Positions 2,121-49,184 of a DNA stretch of 64,000 bases are shown here, in pieces. This stretch comes from a virus. The notes below the pieces were generated by a model that searched no databases, was not told where the DNA came from, and saw only the letters and a program-made list of their open reading frames with translations. Every line of letters starts with the position of its first letter. Positions within the stretch are counted from its first letter, which is position 1. The stretch covers positions 1 through 64,000 of the IMG/VR virus record IMGVR_UViG_3300020027_000006. The stretch is one strand, 5' to 3'. A program made the translations under genes and the position numbers.

Positions 2121-2389
2121 TATTTAGTTTTTGAGGAAGATGCGGATAAGGAAGATGAGGTATAAGCAAATACAGCTGCTACAAGATGCACCCAAAACCA
2201 TCCTGTAAAACCCACTGTAGATGCAATAAGTATAAGTACCATAATACGAGGTATAAATATAGACAGAATAACGTCAACCACAAACGGAGTAGGGTTAAGA
2301 GGAACCATACTCTGCATGTATAGAACCAGAAGACTGATACGAGGCACAAACAAAGATGCCACAAGAAAAAGTGTAGTAAGTTCATTCAT
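2120..2389 (-). CDS. small membrane protein
   Basis: About three hydrophobic segments (LFVPRISLL, FIPRIMVLI). Confidence 0.7.
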   Translation of the reverse strand: MNELTTLFLVASLFVPRISLLVLYMQSMVPLNPTPFVVDVILSIFIPRIMVLILIASTVGFTGWFWVHLVAAVFAYTSSSLSASSSKTK

Positions 2390-2393
2390 AATT

Positions 2394-2924
2394 TTATATT
2401 CTCCCCATATGACTCATGATAACAACTAACAGTATGGCTATTGTTATAATATTGTCTATTGGCTGCCAAATTTTGAATGTTTCAGACTCTATGCCAAATA
2501 TTTTCCCTAAAGCTGCGGTCAGAAAACTTAATCCAAACATAATTAAAAAATATTGATATTGAGGAGTAAATAACCCAAAAAACATCCAAACAAGATAACC
2601 TACAGAAAGAAATATAAGTGCTAGTCCTGCCAACACGCTTACTATACTTCCTGCAATAATTTCTTTAGCTTCTTTTTGTGAGTCTGATAATTCAAGAACA
2701 CGCTCTGCAAATTCTTTGGAACTTATTTCTTTTTCCGCAGGCACCTCATTTATTTTTGAGTCTATGACTTCCAGTTTCTCTTTAGCTACTTGTACTTTTC
2801 CTTCGAGTTCTTTAACATATTTATTAAAAAAAGATGATGGACGAAAGCCTAGCAATGCCATTACTTCAAGAAATAAAGGGAACACCGCAAACAAGAAAAA
2901 AAGGTTTATTAGAAAATTTTCCAT
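2394..2924 (-). CDS. membrane protein
   Basis: About four hydrophobic segments; leaderless promoter directly upstream. Confidence 0.7.
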   Translation of the reverse strand: MENFLINLFFLFAVFPLFLEVMALLGFRPSSFFNKYVKELEGKVQVAKEKLEVIDSKINEVPAEKEISSKEFAERVLELSDSQKEAKEIIAGSIVSVLAGLALIFLSVGYLVWMFFGLFTPQYQYFLIMFGLSFLTAALGKIFGIESETFKIWQPIDNIITIAILLVVIMSHMGRI

Positions 2925-2962
2925 GACATTATCTTACCACAATGTCAATACCTTGTCAAGAG

Positions 2963-3187
2963 TTATTTTCTATCCTCTTGTAACACTAAACTACGTAATA
3001 AAAGAGTTGCTCGGCTTTCTAGCCACTTTAGATGTATTTTCGCTCTACAAGACAAGCAGTTAGTCGTGTCGTCTGTGACTTCTGACACTTCTTCAGGAAC
3101 TGGAGAGCAAACATAAGGTTTTTCACTGTATTCTGTTATTTTCTTAGTTGCTCCTTCTTCAATTGTCCAGTTTTCGTTGTTTTTCAT
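2963..3187 (-). CDS. hypothetical protein
   Basis: ATGA overlap with the upstream gene. Confidence 0.5.
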   Translation of the reverse strand: MKNNENWTIEEGATKKITEYSEKPYVCSPVPEEVSEVTDDTTNCLSCRAKIHLKWLESRATLLLRSLVLQEDRK

Positions 3188-3906
3188 AGGTCTTTTATTT
3201 TTATAGGGTTGCGGAAGCTGTCTTTGTCAAAACCATGCTGCTGTATCTTATATTTGTCAGAAATTTCTAAAATTTCAGGTTCTTTGGCAAGTTGATTGCC
3301 TACATAAATAGATATTTCTTGAAAAGCAGAGTAAGAATCTTTAATTTTATAGAATTGAAACTCTTTAAGAAGAATATTTGTTCGTAAAGTTGTTTGTCTG
3401 CGGTTTATTTGCTCTTTAGTTATTTCAGGTATATCAGAGCTAGTTAAATATTCTTTACTTACTATAAATACAGGAGTATTATATTCTATAAAAGTTTTGT
3501 CATTTTTAAAATCCGAATATCTATCAAAAAATTGTTTGCTGCTGCTTTTACTACTATATCTTCTGTATGAATACTCTTTTTTAAACTGAGTTTTCCATGT
3601 TTTATAGTCTTTATAGTTATAAAAGAAGTACTCGCCTTCATTATCCTGACAATGAGCTAAAGGATACAATTGTCCGCAAAACCCTATTATATGAAAATCT
3701 GTAACAGGTTTAACGAGATTTCCGTTGGAGTCCCTATATGCTTGATAGTTATATCCGTTAGGAAAATCAAACTCTTGAGTACTGTTCCACGAACCAGTAT
3801 ATATAATAATATTTATACTTTCTGTACGATAAAAATGAAGTTCAGGGTCTATACCAAAAGAAACTGCACTGTCATAATAATCTCGTTCTTTACTGTATAT
3901 TTTCAT
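3184..3906 (-). CDS. hypothetical phage protein (MKIYSKERDYYD...)
   Basis: 240-aa ORF within the operon. Confidence 0.7.
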   Translation of the reverse strand: MKIYSKERDYYDSAVSFGIDPELHFYRTESINIIIYTGSWNSTQEFDFPNGYNYQAYRDSNGNLVKPVTDFHIIGFCGQLYPLAHCQDNEGEYFFYNYKDYKTWKTQFKKEYSYRRYSSKSSSKQFFDRYSDFKNDKTFIEYNTPVFIVSKEYLTSSDIPEITKEQINRRQTTLRTNILLKEFQFYKIKDSYSAFQEISIYVGNQLAKEPEILEISDKYKIQQHGFDKDSFRNPIKIKDL

Positions 3907-43672: not shown

Positions 43673-44455
43673 ATGTCTAGTACAAAAACAATGAAACGCT
43701 CAAAAGAGCAACGTGAGTCTGATATGAATATACTGTCTAAAATGTATATTCGAAACAAATCTCAGATGGAGATAGGCCGTACACTTGGAATATCTCAAGG
43801 TCAGGTCTCCAATGACCTCAAAAAACTACTCAAACGTTGGGAAGATACTCGCCTTAACGATATAGACCAATATAAAGCAGAGCAATTACAACGAATCAAT
43901 CACATAGAAGGTGAAATGTGGACAGCTTGGGAGCTTAGTAAGACCAAAGGTAAGATAACTATATCTAAATCAAAATCAGGAGAAATGGTCAAAATGCTTG
44001 ACCCGTCGACCGGAAGAGAATTTAAGATGGACGATGACCGTTACTGGAAAGCAGGTGAAATCGAAGAGCTTCCAACTGGCGGGGGTGATATGCAATACAT
44101 GAACGGTATTATGTGGTGTGTACAAGAACGTTCTAAAATTATGGGACTTAATGCTCCTAAGAAAATTGCTGCTACTGACCCAACCGGTACAATAGAAGCA
44201 GGTCAATCTGCAAAAGAGATACTTGGGGATATAATAGGCGGAATTTTAAAACGAGCTGAAAAATCTGATAAAGAATTAATAGGAAGTAAACTTATGGAAA
44301 TCGGAGATAACAATGAGATTGATGTTAGCTCTGGCTCAGTTCTGGCTCAAAAAATAAGGGATGAAAAAATACGAAGACTTCCGCCTGCAAAAAACGCAGG
44401 TACATCTAGTACCGAAGAAAATAATTACATTGATGCGGAGATAATAGATGAGTAA
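43673..44455 (+). CDS. terminase small subunit (putative)
   Basis: N-terminal HTH (SQMEIGRTLGISQGQVSNDL), ERSKIMGLNAPKK, directly upstream of terL. Confidence 0.75.
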   Translation: MSSTKTMKRSKEQRESDMNILSKMYIRNKSQMEIGRTLGISQGQVSNDLKKLLKRWEDTRLNDIDQYKAEQLQRINHIEGEMWTAWELSKTKGKITISKSKSGEMVKMLDPSTGREFKMDDDRYWKAGEIEELPTGGGDMQYMNGIMWCVQERSKIMGLNAPKKIAATDPTGTIEAGQSAKEILGDIIGGILKRAEKSDKELIGSKLMEIGDNNEIDVSSGSVLAQKIRDEKIRRLPPAKNAGTSSTEENNYIDAEIIDE

Positions 44456-47400
44456 AGAAAAATCAGCAGGCATTGATACATATAATGTAGAAGGCAAAGA
44501 ATCTAAGGTTGCCAATTATACCCCTGAACCTGATGATAACAGAAGCATAATGGAAAAACTTGCTGACCTTAGTGTAGAAAATCCAGAAGCTTATAACGAA
44601 GCAATAGACGCATTAATAGCCGAAAAAGGTGAAGATTGGTTTAAGAATCTTCGTTATGATTGGTCTATAAACGGACGACCTAAACAGTTTCCTCCACAGC
44701 CTATGGAAAAGTGGAGAGCTTGGATTTGTTTGGCAGGTCGCGGATGGGGAAAAGATTTAAGTCCTTTAACCCCAATACTTACAGTCAATCGTGGATGGAT
44801 TACATTAGATAATATTTTAGTAGGAGATGTAGTATTTGATGAGCAAGGTTCTCATACTTCAGTTACAGCTGTTTATGATACGAATCCTGAAAAATGTTAT
44901 AGACTTCATTTTAGTGACGGCACTTGTATAGAGGCTGGAGAGGGACATGAATGGGTGACTTGGGACAGACAAGACCGCAAAGCATATAGAAGGTCTACAT
45001 ACGAGGACGCTAATTCTTTTCCAGAAGATTGGGTTAATTGGAAGGTAAAACGTGTAACTGCTCGTACTTGGCTTAATAAAGAAAAAGTAGAGTCTGCTTT
45101 AGAATTATCTAAGGCTGGTTTTAGTAATAGAAAAATAGCTCAAATAACAGGATTAGGGAGGCTTGCTTTGGCTAAACACATTAAAGCTGGGCGATTTATA
45201 GAAAAACCAGTTCATGAGTTTGGAAAAAACAGAGTAAAAACTTCACAGGAAATAGTAGAAACTCTTTATCATGAGTTAGCTGACGGAAGATTAGAAACTA
45301 ATCACTGTATTCCTAATACTCGACCGTTAAAGACGGAAAATAAAATTTTGCCTATTGACCCTTATTTATTTGGTATGTGGCTTGGTGACGGTTCTAAAGC
45401 TAGTGGGCAAATCGCTACTCATAAAGATGACCTGTCTAATTTAACCTGTGAGTTGGATAAATTAGGATACAAGTATTCAGAACATAAAGACTATATATTT
45501 AATGTTTACGGTTTAGTTACTCAACTTAAAGAGCTTGGAGTACATAAAAACAAACATATCCCTTCAGATTATTTGTCGTCTTCCATAGACCAGAGACTAT
45601 CTCTTCTGCAAGGTCTTATGGACAGTGATGGTACTGCTGATAAAGATGGCTCAAGATGTGAATTTAGTCAGAGTAATGAAACACTTGCAAAACAAGTGTA
45701 TACTTTAATCGTCTCGCTTGGTATGAGTGCTCATATGACCTCTCGAATTCCAATATTAAATGGGGAAGAGAAAAAAGAAAACTGGAGAATAAGATTTACT
45801 CCTAATCTTCCAGTTTTCAGACTTCCTAGAAAACTGGAAAGATTAGATTTTTCTAGGTCTCAAATATTAAAAAGATATTGCAGATACATAATTAAAGCAG
45901 AAGAAATTGTTCCAATTCCTATGCGTTGCATAACTGTAGATTCCCCTAATTCTTTATACTTGGCAGGTGACCAATTAATCCCTACTCATAATACCAAGAC
46001 AGGGGCAGAAACTACAAATATTTGGGTCAACACACATAAAAAAGGAACTCCACCTATACGTATAGCTCTTATTGGTGCAACTACTAGTGACTGTAACGCG
46101 GTCATGGTTTCTGGAAATTCTGGTATACTCAGTATTTATCCAGATAAAGAAAAACCTGACTGGATTTCAACCAACAGAAAAGTTATTTGGCGGTATCCTG
46201 ACGGAGAAGTAAAGGCTATTGCGGAATGTTTTGCTTTAGACATCAATACTGAGATACCCACACCCAAAGGGTTTAAACTTATGGGTGATATTACAGTTGG
46301 TGAACAAGTATTTGATGAAAAAGGTCTCCCTTGCAATGTAACTGCTGTAACTGATACAGGACTAGACCATAAATGTTTTGAAATAACGTTTAAAAATGGT
46401 CAAAAAATAACGGCTGATGCTGCACATCTATGGAAAATTTCTACAGCTTCGGATAGAGATAGTAGAGTTGATAAAAGCAGAATAGTGAATTCTCAGTGGA
46501 TTGCGGACAACTTTAGTGTTCCGCATAAGGGAAGAAAAAACGATTTAAATATTTGGGTCAAATTAACAGAACCTGTATTGTACGAAGAAAAAGAGCTGTC
46601 TATTGCACCATACGTTTTAGGTGTATGGCTTGGAGATGGTGCAAATAATAATAGTTCTTTTGTATCAGAAACTTCTGAGATTCCAGATTTCATATCATCT
46701 TTTGGTTATTCTGTAACAAAAACTAAAGCACCAATGCGTTACACAATTTGTGGTCTTATTACTCAGCTTAAAGAGTTTGGACTTTATAGAAATAAGCATA
46801 TACCTTCGATTTACAAGCAAGGGTCTATTGAGCAAAGAAAAGAACTATTGCGGGGATTGTTAGATACAGATGGTTTTGTATCAAAAAAAGGTGCGATTGT
46901 ATTCTCTAATACAAATGAAGATTTAGTTGATGGGGTGTGTGAAATAGTTTCCAGTCTTGGTGGATGGACAACAAAAAAATTACAAAACCCAAAAAAGAAT
47001 CTTCCTTATAATCAAAAACCTAGATGGAAGGTAGTTATTAGAGGGCTGTATGACCTTTTCAAACTTCCACGAAAACTGGAGAGAGTAATAATTAGAAGAG
47101 TGTCCACTGATTTGCCAGTAGTTTCACTTAAAGAAGTAGAACCAACACCAGTTAGATGTATAACAGTAGACTCATCAGAACATCTATTTCTTGCTACTAG
47201 AAGCTATATTGTGACCTCAAACAGTGCAGAGGAGCCTGAGCGTCTTCGAGGCCCACAATTTAATTATGCGTGGTGTTTGATTGGAGAAACTCCAGTGTTA
47301 ATGGAGAATTTTACAACCAAACCTTTGAAAGATATTAAAGAGGGAGAATATGTACGAACGAGAGACGGGGCTAAGAAAGTATTAGCTTCTTATCTTACCA

Positions 47401-49184
47401 AAGAAAATGCTGACTTGTATGAGTTACTTCTTATGGACGGAAGAGTTATTATAGGTACAGGTGAGCATCCTGTATATTTATCAGATTCAGGATTTACTCA
47501 ACTTCAAAATATTAAAGAGGGAGATTTTGTATTATGTGCAAGTCCTGTATCAAATTCGACGGAGGAGTTTATCATCTTAGAGGAAACTCTCCTTATTATC
47601 AAACAAGTATTAGACTTCATAGAGAGGTATGGAGATACCACAACGGAAGAATCCCAGAAGGACATCATATCCACCATAAAAACGAGGATAGAACAGATAA
47701 TTCAGTTGAAAATTTGGAGTGCCTCACAAAAGAAGAGCATTCAAGAATTCACGGAACTAAGCGATTTGCGGAGTTTAGAGAGCTGGCTGTTGCAAATTCA
47801 ATTAAATCTAGGGAGCACAATAGAAAAGAACTACTTAAAAGAATTTTATTATGTAAATTATGCGGAAAAGAGTTTAGCAGCGGGTCAAAACATCCAAGAC
47901 AACTATGCTCTCAAAAATGCATGGATGAACTTAGAAACACATCATACACAGGAGAATCCAGATTATGTGCTTTTTGCGGAGAAGAGTACACTACATCAAA
48001 AAATGCTCAAAAATATTGTTCCAAACTATGCAATAACAGAGTACATGCGGACAGAGCCAGTAAACTGGTTGCTAAAACAATTAAATGTGTTATTTGTAAA
48101 ATTGAATTCAATTCAAAACGATTCAATGCAAGATTTTGTAGCACAAAATGCTCTAAATCTATACGATATGAAAGTGGTAGGCGTAAAAAAATTAGCGAAG
48201 AAATCAGACGTTTATGATTTAACTATTGAGGACAGTCATGAGTTTTTTGCAAACGGTGTTCTTGTGCATAATTGTGATGAATTAGCTGCTTGGCGTTATC
48301 AGGCAGCATGGGATATGTTAATGTTTGGTCTTCGTTTAGGAGACAACCCACAGGTCATAGTGACTACTACTCCTAGACCTTTTCCTATTTTGCTCGATGT
48401 ACTTAAATTAAAGACCAGCTGGACAACAATAGGTACAACTTATGAGAATCGTTCTAACTTAGCCCCTGCTTTTTTTAGTGACATCATAAACAAATATGAG
48501 GATTCAGCACTTGGTCGTCAAGAATTAATGGCCGAAATAATTGAAGAAGTTCCAAACGCTATGTGGAATGAGAAAAACATTGAGGCTAACAGACGTGATT
48601 ATAGTGATATAATTAATCTTCCAGAAATGTTAAGTATGGTTATAGCTATTGACCCCGCAACTACTAGTAGAAGTGGTTCTGCAGAAACCGGTATGTGTGT
48701 AGCGGGTTATGGAGAAGATGACCATTTCTATATATATCATTTAGACGCAGTATCTATGCAGCCTGATAAATGGGCAACTCGTGCTCTCAATTTATTTGAG
48801 GACTATAACTGTGATAAATTAATAGCAGAGGTTAATAATGGAGGAGATTTAGTAGAAACAGTTATAAAATCTATTAATCCTATGCAAAAAGTATACCCTG
48901 TTTATGCATCTCGCGGTAAAATTACTCGTGCTGAACCTATTGCAGCTCTTTATGAGCAAAATCGTGTTCATCATATAGGAAGATTTTTAGAGGGTGAACG
49001 TCAAATGACTACATTTAATCCGCTAGAGAACCCTCACGGTCTTAAAGATATGGTAGACGCTTTGGTTTGGGCAGTCACTTGGCTGGTTAATACTACTCAA
49101 GGTAAAAATACTTTTAAACCGGCAGTTGGGGGTTCTCGCACAAAATTATCAAATTATAGAAAAATATTTAATACAGATTTTTAA
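44448..49184 (+). CDS. terL: terminase large subunit with three inteins (about 502 aa after splicing)
   Basis: Walker A AGRGWGK|T, SAEEPERLRGPQ, Walker B YAW|CDE, VTTTPRP, nuclease IAIDPA and DMVDAL. Confidence 0.95.
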   Translation: MSKEKSAGIDTYNVEGKESKVANYTPEPDDNRSIMEKLADLSVENPEAYNEAIDALIAEKGEDWFKNLRYDWSINGRPKQFPPQPMEKWRAWICLAGRGWGKDLSPLTPILTVNRGWITLDNILVGDVVFDEQGSHTSVTAVYDTNPEKCYRLHFSDGTCIEAGEGHEWVTWDRQDRKAYRRSTYEDANSFPEDWVNWKVKRVTARTWLNKEKVESALELSKAGFSNRKIAQITGLGRLALAKHIKAGRFIEKPVHEFGKNRVKTSQEIVETLYHELADGRLETNHCIPNTRPLKTENKILPIDPYLFGMWLGDGSKASGQIATHKDDLSNLTCELDKLGYKYSEHKDYIFNVYGLVTQLKELGVHKNKHIPSDYLSSSIDQRLSLLQGLMDSDGTADKDGSRCEFSQSNETLAKQVYTLIVSLGMSAHMTSRIPILNGEEKKENWRIRFTPNLPVFRLPRKLERLDFSRSQILKRYCRYIIKAEEIVPIPMRCITVDSPNSLYLAGDQLIPTHNTKTGAETTNIWVNTHKKGTPPIRIALIGATTSDCNAVMVSGNSGILSIYPDKEKPDWISTNRKVIWRYPDGEVKAIAECFALDINTEIPTPKGFKLMGDITVGEQVFDEKGLPCNVTAVTDTGLDHKCFEITFKNGQKITADAAHLWKISTASDRDSRVDKSRIVNSQWIADNFSVPHKGRKNDLNIWVKLTEPVLYEEKELSIAPYVLGVWLGDGANNNSSFVSETSEIPDFISSFGYSVTKTKAPMRYTICGLITQLKEFGLYRNKHIPSIYKQGSIEQRKELLRGLLDTDGFVSKKGAIVFSNTNEDLVDGVCEIVSSLGGWTTKKLQNPKKNLPYNQKPRWKVVIRGLYDLFKLPRKLERVIIRRVSTDLPVVSLKEVEPTPVRCITVDSSEHLFLATRSYIVTSNSAEEPERLRGPQFNYAWCLIGETPVLMENFTTKPLKDIKEGEYVRTRDGAKKVLASYLTKENADLYELLLMDGRVIIGTGEHPVYLSDSGFTQLQNIKEGDFVLCASPVSNSTEEFIILEETLLIIKQVLDFIERYGDTTTEESQKDIISTIKTRIEQIIQLKIWSASQKKSIQEFTELSDLRSLESWLLQIQLNLGSTIEKNYLKEFYYVNYAEKSLAAGQNIQDNYALKNAWMNLETHHTQENPDYVLFAEKSTLHQKMLKNIVPNYAITEYMRTEPVNWLLKQLNVLFVKLNSIQNDSMQDFVAQNALNLYDMKVVGVKKLAKKSDVYDLTIEDSHEFFANGVLVHNCDELAAWRYQAAWDMLMFGLRLGDNPQVIVTTTPRPFPILLDVLKLKTSWTTIGTTYENRSNLAPAFFSDIINKYEDSALGRQELMAEIIEEVPNAMWNEKNIEANRRDYSDIINLPEMLSMVIAIDPATTSRSGSAETGMCVAGYGEDDHFYIYHLDAVSMQPDKWATRALNLFEDYNCDKLIAEVNNGGDLVETVIKSINPMQKVYPVYASRGKITRAEPIAALYEQNRVHHIGRFLEGERQMTTFNPLENPHGLKDMVDALVWAVTWLVNTTQGKNTFKPAVGGSRTKLSNYRKIFNTDF
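44754..45992 (+). mobile_element. intein 1 (413 aa, class-3 signature, LAGLIDADG) in Walker A
   Basis: DLSPLTPIL...GHEW...MRCITV...PTHN|T; GMWLGDG and LQGLMDSDG. Confidence 0.9.
46233..47222 (+). mobile_element. intein 2 (330 aa, class-3 signature, LAGLIDADG)
   Basis: ALDINTEIPT...AHLW...VRCITV...VTSN|S; GVWLGDG and LRGLLDTDG. Confidence 0.88.
47274..48272 (+). mobile_element. intein 3 (333 aa, class 1) in Walker B
   Basis: CLIGETPV...GTGEHPV...VYDLTIEDSHEFFANGVLVHN|C. Confidence 0.9.
47534..48217 (+). CDS. HNH endonuclease with Zn-ribbon repeats, nested out of frame within intein 3
   Basis: LHREVW...IPEGHHIHHKNEDRTDNSVENLECL..EH; three CxxC..CS..C units; GAGGGAG SD 10 nt upstream. Confidence 0.85.
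   Translation: MCKSCIKFDGGVYHLRGNSPYYQTSIRLHREVWRYHNGRIPEGHHIHHKNEDRTDNSVENLECLTKEEHSRIHGTKRFAEFRELAVANSIKSREHNRKELLKRILLCKLCGKEFSSGSKHPRQLCSQKCMDELRNTSYTGESRLCAFCGEEYTTSKNAQKYCSKLCNNRVHADRASKLVAKTIKCVICKIEFNSKRFNARFCSTKCSKSIRYESGRRKKISEEIRRL

Follow-up and report, generated by a model that had tools for sequence, protein, structure and literature searches.

Organization of the terL locus

The terL gene (terminase large subunit) in the IMG/VR virus record IMGVR_UViG_3300020027_000006 holds three inteins, and the third of these, here called intein 3, has a complete HNH endonuclease gene written over its middle in a different reading frame, while the frame shared by the intein and the terminase stays free of stop codons. 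The window, i.e., the whole stretch of DNA that was analysed, comprises positions 1 to 64,000 of that record (64,000 nucleotides, one strand, 5' to 3'), and the features of the locus are collected in Table 1. In Pfam searches the Terminase_6N and Terminase_6C matches of the terL open reading frame (ORF) are split up by intein and LAGLIDADG domains. Intein 3 fits the description of a class-1 intein by its nucleophile, its TxxH motif, its HN/C junction (the slash marks the splice point), its profile match and its HINT fold. The nucleophile Cys1 lies at 47274, block B (GTGEHP) holds Thr62 (47457) and His65 (47466), the terminal His-Asn occupies 48267-48272 and the +1 Cys follows at 48273. The C-terminal end of the intein reads ...VYDLTIEDSHEFFANGVLVHN, with the junction ...VLVHN/C. 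In a family alignment Cys1, Thr62, His65, the terminal HN and the +1 Cys are invariant across 21 relatives, and the Pfam family Intein_splicing (PF14890) matches intein 3 with 59.5 bits (cut-off 35.8). Given these intact motifs and the essential nature of terL, intein 3 is expected to undergo protein splicing.

The middle of intein 3, about 200 residues in the intein frame, matches no nuclease or other family in Pfam (E<=0.1) or PHROGs (E<=0.01), and an AlphaFold model of the intein frame is confident for the two HINT halves and of low confidence between them (values in Table 1). The same DNA contains a 227-codon ORF in the -1 frame, the product of which matches the Pfam family HNH_3 (PF13392; E=2e-18, 66.2 bits, cut-off 24.8) as well as several PHROG HNH families. 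The 3' end of this gene is shared with the first 50 nt of the C-terminal HINT half, and the genome record of the window contains no other HNH_3 copy. A sequence-only reading of the window had described a dual-coding intein with intact splicing blocks at both ends, no recognisable nuclease in its own middle and an HNH in another frame. This description is correct in each part, including the exact coordinates of the intein. A canonical in-frame HNH intein is ruled out, with no nuclease match in the intein frame and the HNH at -1.

Table 1. Coordinates of terL, intein 3 and the overprinted HNH gene in the window
Feature	Position	Strand	Remarks
terL precursor ORF, 1578 aa (amino acids), three inteins	44448..49184	+	Terminase_6N, Terminase_6C, Intein_splicing and LAGLIDADG_3 domains; no internal stop
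Intein 3, 333 aa, class-1 type, in Walker B segment ...FNYAW/CDELAAW	47274..48272	+	Cys1, T62xxH65, terminal HN, +1 Cys
N-terminal HINT splicing half, blocks A and B, intein aa 1-91	47274..47546	+	pLDDT (predicted local distance difference test) 90-96 (aa 1-90); conserved; kept in mini-intein relatives
TAA closing the HNH frame	47513..47515	+	18 nt 5' of HNH ATG
Shine-Dalgarno-like GAGGGAG	47517..47523	+	10 nt 5' of HNH ATG; overlaps intein codons for conserved ..EGD..
Overprinted gene of HNH, putative homing endonuclease, 227 aa + stop; dual-coded stretch of intein	47534..48217	+	-1 (+2/-1) frame relative to terL
Intein-frame read-through peptide, intein aa 93-296	47550..48161	+	pLDDT 30-65; no conserved columns; missing from mini-inteins
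HNH_3 catalytic core, I-HmuI-like (His48, Asn60, His69)	47612..47746	+	Profile 69.2 bits; invariant H47, H48, N56, N60, H69
Three CxxC...CxxxC zinc-ribbon repeats (C107-C129, C145-C166, C185-C206)	47852..48151	+	Presumed DNA-recognition module
C-terminal HINT splicing half, blocks F and G, ...VYDLTIEDSHEFFANGVLVHN	48168..48272	+	Conservation; pLDDT 87-95 for most of aa 300-333
First C-extein residues Cys-Asp-Glu: +1 nucleophile, then acidic pair of the terL Walker B motif	48273..48281	+	Terminase_6N match restarts at +1 Cys

Openness of both frames and selection

The dual-frame layout of intein 3 is real and reflects neither chance nor an assembly artefact. When the codons of the HNH gene were shuffled synonymously with the HNH protein held fixed, 5.6 stops were expected in the intein frame if the gene kept its own codons and 8.1 under the codon usage of the window; none is observed, and in 20000 shuffles under either codon scheme a stop-free intein frame never arose. 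The third frame contains about 45 stops over intein 3, 29 of them inside the HNH span, and two free-standing homologues, from Lactobacillus phage CL2 and Salmonella phage Shemara, carry 8 and 10 stops, respectively, in the equivalent frame. The same holds for the family at large, where the 58 distinct HNH ORFs have no intein-frame stops against a mean expectation of 2.8, and for 45 of them fewer than 5% of shuffles reach zero.

The two frames differ in the way they are selected. The third codon position of the HNH gene is the second position of the intein frame, so that every change there alters a residue of the intein frame. Among eight phylogenetically independent pairs of loci the differences at HNH codon positions 1, 2 and 3 number 345, 303 and 583 (chi-square p=7e-25), and the amino acid identity of the HNH frame always exceeds that of the intein frame over the same DNA (e.g., 0.75 vs 0.51). 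A comparison with the TerL protein P0003, a close relative known from its protein alone, was made by finding for each amino acid mismatch the single-nucleotide change in the window codon that explains it. In the dual-coded middle 48 mismatches need a change at the second position of the intein codon and 18 a change at the first, as compared to 16 and 30, respectively, in the exteins and splicing halves (Fisher p=9e-5). The P0003 HNH inferred by parsimony in this way is about 87% identical to that of the window, as opposed to 66% for the intein frame, and has 0-2 internal stops over equally parsimonious codon choices, some choices being stop-free. This substitution pattern implies a protein-coding HNH gene that works or did so until recently. 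Shuffles and substitutions together bear out the earlier suggestion that both frames are under selection, and they indicate that it is ordinary purifying selection in the HNH frame, and in the middle of the intein frame selection only to stay open.

The nested HNH protein

The HNH protein combines an HNH_3 catalytic core with three zinc ribbons, the first two of which (eight Cys) are invariant in 29 relatives and the third of which is present in the closest subgroup only. An AlphaFold model of the HNH frame, made with a 29-sequence alignment, has a mean pLDDT of 90.6. Its best structural neighbour in a VIA-align comparison is I-HmuI (1U3E; Z 7.8, root-mean-square deviation 2.3 A over 71 residues), the next one reaching Z 4.6 and T4 endonuclease VII (1E7D) Z 2.1. 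I-HmuI is an HNH homing endonuclease of the nicking type, encoded by an intron of Bacillus phage SPO1. A profile search of sequences in the Protein Data Bank (PDB) with the HNH likewise gave I-HmuI 1U3E as its sole match (E=0.0025), and a Foldseek search of the PDB with the whole model gave nothing at E<=0.001. The profile, the catalytic His...Asn...His and the modelled beta-beta-alpha-metal fold are those of an HNH_3/I-HmuI-like His-Me finger homing endonuclease, and the nested HNH is predicted to be one.

Recurrence among relatives

A word-indexed protein search found the intein of the P0003 TerL to be 71% identical to intein 3 over all 333 residues, without gaps, and several further inteins at about 27% identity. 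In one of the latter, P0004, the intein-frame middle 'QKDIISTIKMGILEIILLKIW' is an off-frame ghost of the HNH motif PEGHHIHHKN...NLE, a first hint that the layout occurs repeatedly. When IMG/VR was scanned with an intein alignment, 425 relatives were confirmed, the best 80 of which were examined by tblastn. At 74 of these 80 viral loci an HNH homologue lies inside the intein, always at the offset +2/-1 (HNH in frame 3 with the intein in frame 1, and likewise 1 with 2 and 2 with 3). At the other six the intein is a mini-intein of 127-194 aa, from which precisely the middle part is missing. At every viral locus the intein frame is without stops and the host ORF is continuous through the intein. 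The HNH ORFs of the family are 167-264 aa long, with one exception, and end inside the block F region. A scan of prokaryotic assemblies, with one genome per species, found the same layout at 24 of 30 bacterial and archaeal loci, from Alphaproteobacteria, Bacteroidota, Firmicutes, Actinomycetes, Chloroflexota, Acidobacteria, Planctomycetes and others. Among the related loci found, none has the HNH in frame or at +1. The recurrence of one -1 offset in about 100 independent assemblies excludes compensating assembly indels, and the HNH frame is kept in homologues, so that the objections raised in the sequence-only reading against its own proposal fail.

Among archaeal loci, L100 from a Methanimicrococcus bin has the HNH at the usual offset with the host frame broken, and L113 from a Methanothrix bin has a related intein with only a weak antisense HNH-like match.

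Two finished phage genomes contain the nested gene without annotation in GenBank. In Clostridium phage phiCDHM19 (L083, LK985322; terL 443-2842) a -1-frame HNH ORF lies at 2056-2721, and in Tetrasphaera phage TJE1 (L084) a -1-frame HNH ORF lies at about 2380-3025 within terL. A match was also seen in phiCD119, under the name 'hypothetical protein'. A megablast search of a phage collection with terL gave no match. Viral contigs scanned with the HNH as a single protein likewise gave nothing, whereas the alignment-based scan with the intein succeeded. Three HNH homologues that are longer by about 87 residues at the N-terminus (P0014, P0018 and P0046) were considered as in-frame intein fusions and rejected, as the extensions have no similarity to the N-terminal half of HINT; they are Arg/Gly/Trp-rich off-frame read-through of GC-rich DNA.

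Inheritance and probable mobility of the composite intein

Divergence of the HNH and divergence of the splicing domain are correlated among relatives (Mantel r=0.72, a value reached in 0 of 2000 permutations), and the nearest neighbours of the window, L002, L003, L004, L005 and L063, are identical by either part. All ten of ten sampled hosts are TerL proteins, although they belong to three Pfam families (Terminase_6N/6C, Terminase_3/3C and GpA_ATPase), and the insertion sites vary between the Walker B position AW/CDE used in the window, other points in Walker B and the nuclease-domain motif ..NH/C.DA.RY. Compared with 47259-48290 of the window, the intein in L004 and L005 is located five codons upstream of the insertion point, after LRGPQ in the same Walker B segment, and in L057 four codons downstream, after CDEL. 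L057 displays the uninterrupted target sequence FAWCDEL.

The intein content of terL also varies between close relatives. L018 and L020 (both 3001-3852) differ by 2 nt, and one of these changes, C3493A, creates a stop at Ser95 of the HNH but leaves the intein-frame residue as it was; L020 is a freshly inactivated endonuclease inside an intact intein. Mini-inteins share sites with full inteins, e.g., L045 and L046 with L016. In the window two further terL inteins with LAGLIDADG domains lie within 44448-47273. The relative P0003 (1538 aa) shares inteins 1 and 3 and is without intein 2 (aa 596-925 of the window protein), and it has an additional intein near its C-terminus (P0003 aa 1188-1482). 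The nonsense change between L018 and L020, the mini-inteins at shared sites and the variable intein content of P0003 fit a selfish homing endonuclease.

Free-standing homologues of the HNH occur next to terL, in Lactobacillus phage CL2 (L085) between terL and the portal gene and in Salmonella phage Shemara (L082) adjoining terL on the opposite strand, and it is plausible that such genes were the source pool for invasion of terL inteins. The sequence-only reading had proposed that a free-standing HNH invaded a mini-intein. As an interpretation this is supported, but the invasion was not a recent event in the phage of the window; it is ancestral to a large family whose HNH and splicing domain co-diverge.

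Probable translation of the nested gene

The sequence-only reading had also given the HNH plus zinc-ribbon frame at 47534-48217 a Shine-Dalgarno sequence of its own. The HNH_3 match, the zinc ribbons and the GAGGGAG motif are all present, but the motif is only moderate evidence for initiation. It consists of the 4-nt core GGAG at a spacing of 10 nt, where the genes of the window have spacings of 4-14 nt. In the 47517-47529 region the motif falls on the ..EGD.. codons that form the end of the N-terminal HINT half, and in some members the conserved Gly-Asp (GGn GAy) may give the overprinted gene a purine-rich element for ribosome binding. Further indications come from the start itself. The first start codon is ATG in 69 of 75 HNH ORFs (a count that includes five GTG/TTG loci and the ATG of the window), relatives have an in-frame stop 3-51 nt 5' of the HNH start, and the conserved HNH N-terminus M-C-x-x-C begins at the ATG. 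Because of this conserved ATG, the coinciding N-terminus and the stop shortly upstream, independent initiation of the HNH at ATG 47534 on the terL mRNA is most likely. Independent translation of the HNH and splicing-out of the off-frame peptide from TerL, as had been suggested, would fit the conserved ATG, the nearby upstream stop and the confident HINT halves.

Interpretation

It is very probable that intein 3 is a composite selfish element in which a HINT splicing domain and a separately translated, I-HmuI-like homing HNH in the -1 frame occupy the same DNA. In the terL frame an unconstrained read-through peptide of about 200 residues would link the class-1 HINT halves, and intein 3 as a whole would be excised from the TerL precursor after translation. 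The DNA between the HINT halves would, in the -1 frame, form a gene of its own that codes for an HNH_3 nuclease of the I-HmuI type with three zinc ribbons, and its translation would most likely start at ATG 47534 on the terL mRNA. In terL alleles that have no intein, this nuclease would make a cut or nick at the Walker B site (..AW^CDE..), and repair would copy intein and nuclease together (homing). Behind this interpretation stand the architecture itself, purifying selection on the HNH frame, avoidance of stops in the intein frame and the inheritance of both parts as one unit throughout a very wide family.

Some points weigh against it. Internal initiation, splicing, nuclease activity and target site are all predicted from sequence. 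A Shine-Dalgarno-like motif is found at only 16 of 53 distinct HNH starts in the family. A search for promoters gave no sigma-70-like one on the + strand ahead of the HNH, and promoter-like sites across the region are no more frequent than by chance; the HNH would therefore be read from the terL message. The control for off-frame stops consists of only two free-standing homologues, and the comparison with P0003 is a parsimony inference from a protein.

The alternatives concern activity, function, mode of translation and the assembly. It is unlikely that the HNH ORF in the window is an unexpressed or inactive relic and that the intein persists by vertical descent only. Homing endonucleases do decay after fixation, and L020 with its fresh nonsense mutation and the six relatives that are mini-inteins could be taken as such cases, but the ORF in the window is full length and has all invariant catalytic residues and zinc ligands, and the substitutions between the window and P0003 indicate purifying selection in this very lineage. 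A low probability is likewise given to the idea that HNH production is tied to translation of terL, by coupled or internal initiation in the ..GD.. codons or by frameshifting, and/or that the HNH cooperates with the host terminase, e.g., by nicking at packaging. If this were so, the -1-frame family would be a functional terL-HNH module and not a pure parasite.

A role in packaging as such, with the nested HNH acting as a terminase-associated HNH like HK97 gp74 and not in homing, is very unlikely. The idea was raised as a speculation for the brucellaphages (Virol J, 2015; PMC4422536), and all hosts found are terL genes. The observations of nonsense change, same-site mini-inteins and variable intein content fit less well with a packaging factor than with homing, although the free-standing relatives in CL2 and Shemara adjoin terL. 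The HNH can be lost or truncated while terL stays intact (mini-inteins, L020), its presence is sporadic and its insertion sites vary, its closest fold is that of the homing nickase I-HmuI, and modular zinc ribbons would be expected of a site-specific homing enzyme.

Programmed -1 ribosomal frameshifting from the terL/intein frame, which would yield a fusion of N-extein, N-terminal HINT half and HNH without any independent initiation, is highly improbable. It would agree with an offset that is -1 in every member found and with the lack of a Shine-Dalgarno-like motif at most starts in the family. On the other hand, the HNH frame is closed by a stop 3-51 nt before the conserved ATG, which in the window leaves only 18 nt (47516-47533) for the shift, with no X XXY YYZ slippery heptamer seen there by eye, and the conserved M-C-x-x-C N-terminus starts at the ATG. 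Finally, the notion that two compensating insertions or deletions in assembly or sequencing, for which there are homopolymers at both junctions (T4 47525-47528, A7 48186-48192), mask a canonical in-frame HNH intein is effectively refuted. Were the HNH in frame in reality, terL as assembled would be read in a random off-frame with many stops, where 5.6-8.1 are expected and none is present. The identical offset recurs in finished phage genomes and about 100 independent assemblies, and P0003 retains the same open frame without gaps.

The composite, overprinted intein is of interest beyond this phage. Overprinted endonuclease genes within inteins are relevant to the 'splicing first' model, according to which inteins originated by invasion of mini-inteins by free-standing homing endonucleases, and the window provides a clear and intact example of them. 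The -1-frame I-HmuI-like lineage is very large. Its hosts are terL genes from three unrelated families, and it occurs in archaeal bins as well as in phages and prophages of many bacterial phyla; this wide spread implies that the overprinted state can be stable over long times rather than a short-lived intermediate. Gene callers and annotators overlook such nucleases, as in phiCDHM19 and TJE1. The 200-residue read-through peptide is a natural case of a sequence selected only for the absence of stops.

Comparison with known systems

A nested out-of-frame HNH in the terL intein of brucellaphages was noted in 2015 (Virol J; PMC4422536), and in GenBank NC_019446 (Brucella phage Tb) terL is annotated 'intein present' together with a nested HNH coding sequence. 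The brucellaphages (Perisivirus Tb and Pr; NC_019446 gp07/gp08) resemble the window in having a terL intein with an out-of-frame, same-strand ORF of 228 aa for an HNH with a zinc ribbon and an open terL frame. They differ in that the HNH of Tb is offset by +1, as opposed to -1 in the window, and belongs to PF01844 with the nuclease at the C-terminus. BLASTP found no similarity between the Tb HNH and that of the window. Offset, family and this lack of BLASTP similarity point to an independent origin.

Actinophage inteins with an out-of-frame homing endonuclease were described in 2025 (bioRxiv 10.1101/2025.01.02.630785). There too the splicing blocks enclose the endonuclease, which is encoded in 'frame 3' relative to the intein, the hosts include terL and the in-frame middle is predicted to be unstructured, and the authors propose that such inteins arose when a free-standing homing endonuclease invaded an intein (bioRxiv 10.1101/2025.01.02.630785). 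Intein 3 has the attributes by which these non-canonical inteins are defined, i.e., a homing endonuclease between the splicing blocks, in another frame, on the same strand and with the host frame uninterrupted. The nucleases are different, however. That of the actinophages matches T4 endonuclease VII (1E7D, Z 6.5), whereas the window HNH has Z 2.1 to 1E7D and Z 7.8 to I-HmuI, and tblastn with the window HNH or with a GC-rich relative found no SEA-PHAGES actinophage at E limits of 1e-10 and 1e-8. To judge from these matches the window HNH is of a different nuclease lineage from the published cases, i.e., the endonuclease VII-like one and PF01844 of phage Tb.

I-HmuI (PDB 1U3E), the closest solved structure and profile match for the nuclease core, is itself located in a group I intron and has a helix-turn-helix tail, whereas the HNH of the window lies inside an intein and has zinc-ribbon repeats. 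An Rfam search over 46800-48700 gave no intron or other RNA family at E<=1, and an intein rather than a group I intron is favoured by the HINT motifs and by a host frame that stays open. Fractured genes, in which a free-standing homing endonuclease gene lies between the halves of a split intein (Dassa et al., 2009; PMC2677866), are similar in that a separately translated endonuclease gene is placed between N- and C-terminal splicing halves; there, however, the host gene is broken into two ORFs that are spliced in trans, whereas terL of the window is a single continuous ORF of 1578 codons. Hidden out-of-frame HNH inserts of the ShiLan type in phage methylases, reported in 2025 (PMC11855218), share with intein 3 an out-of-frame HNH overprinted on an insert that is open in the host frame, but the ShiLan insert is without a splicing domain, whereas the HNH of the window is flanked by a complete HINT domain.

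In full-text literature searches, no paper was found in which the I-HmuI-like -1-frame lineage is described as such. The layout itself is already known (2015, 2025), and what the window adds is a member of an I-HmuI-like lineage that was not found described. With the concept already published, the value of these observations lies in their breadth, and it is the picture of the family, with about 100 loci, one fixed offset and clear signatures of selection, that is most worth keeping.

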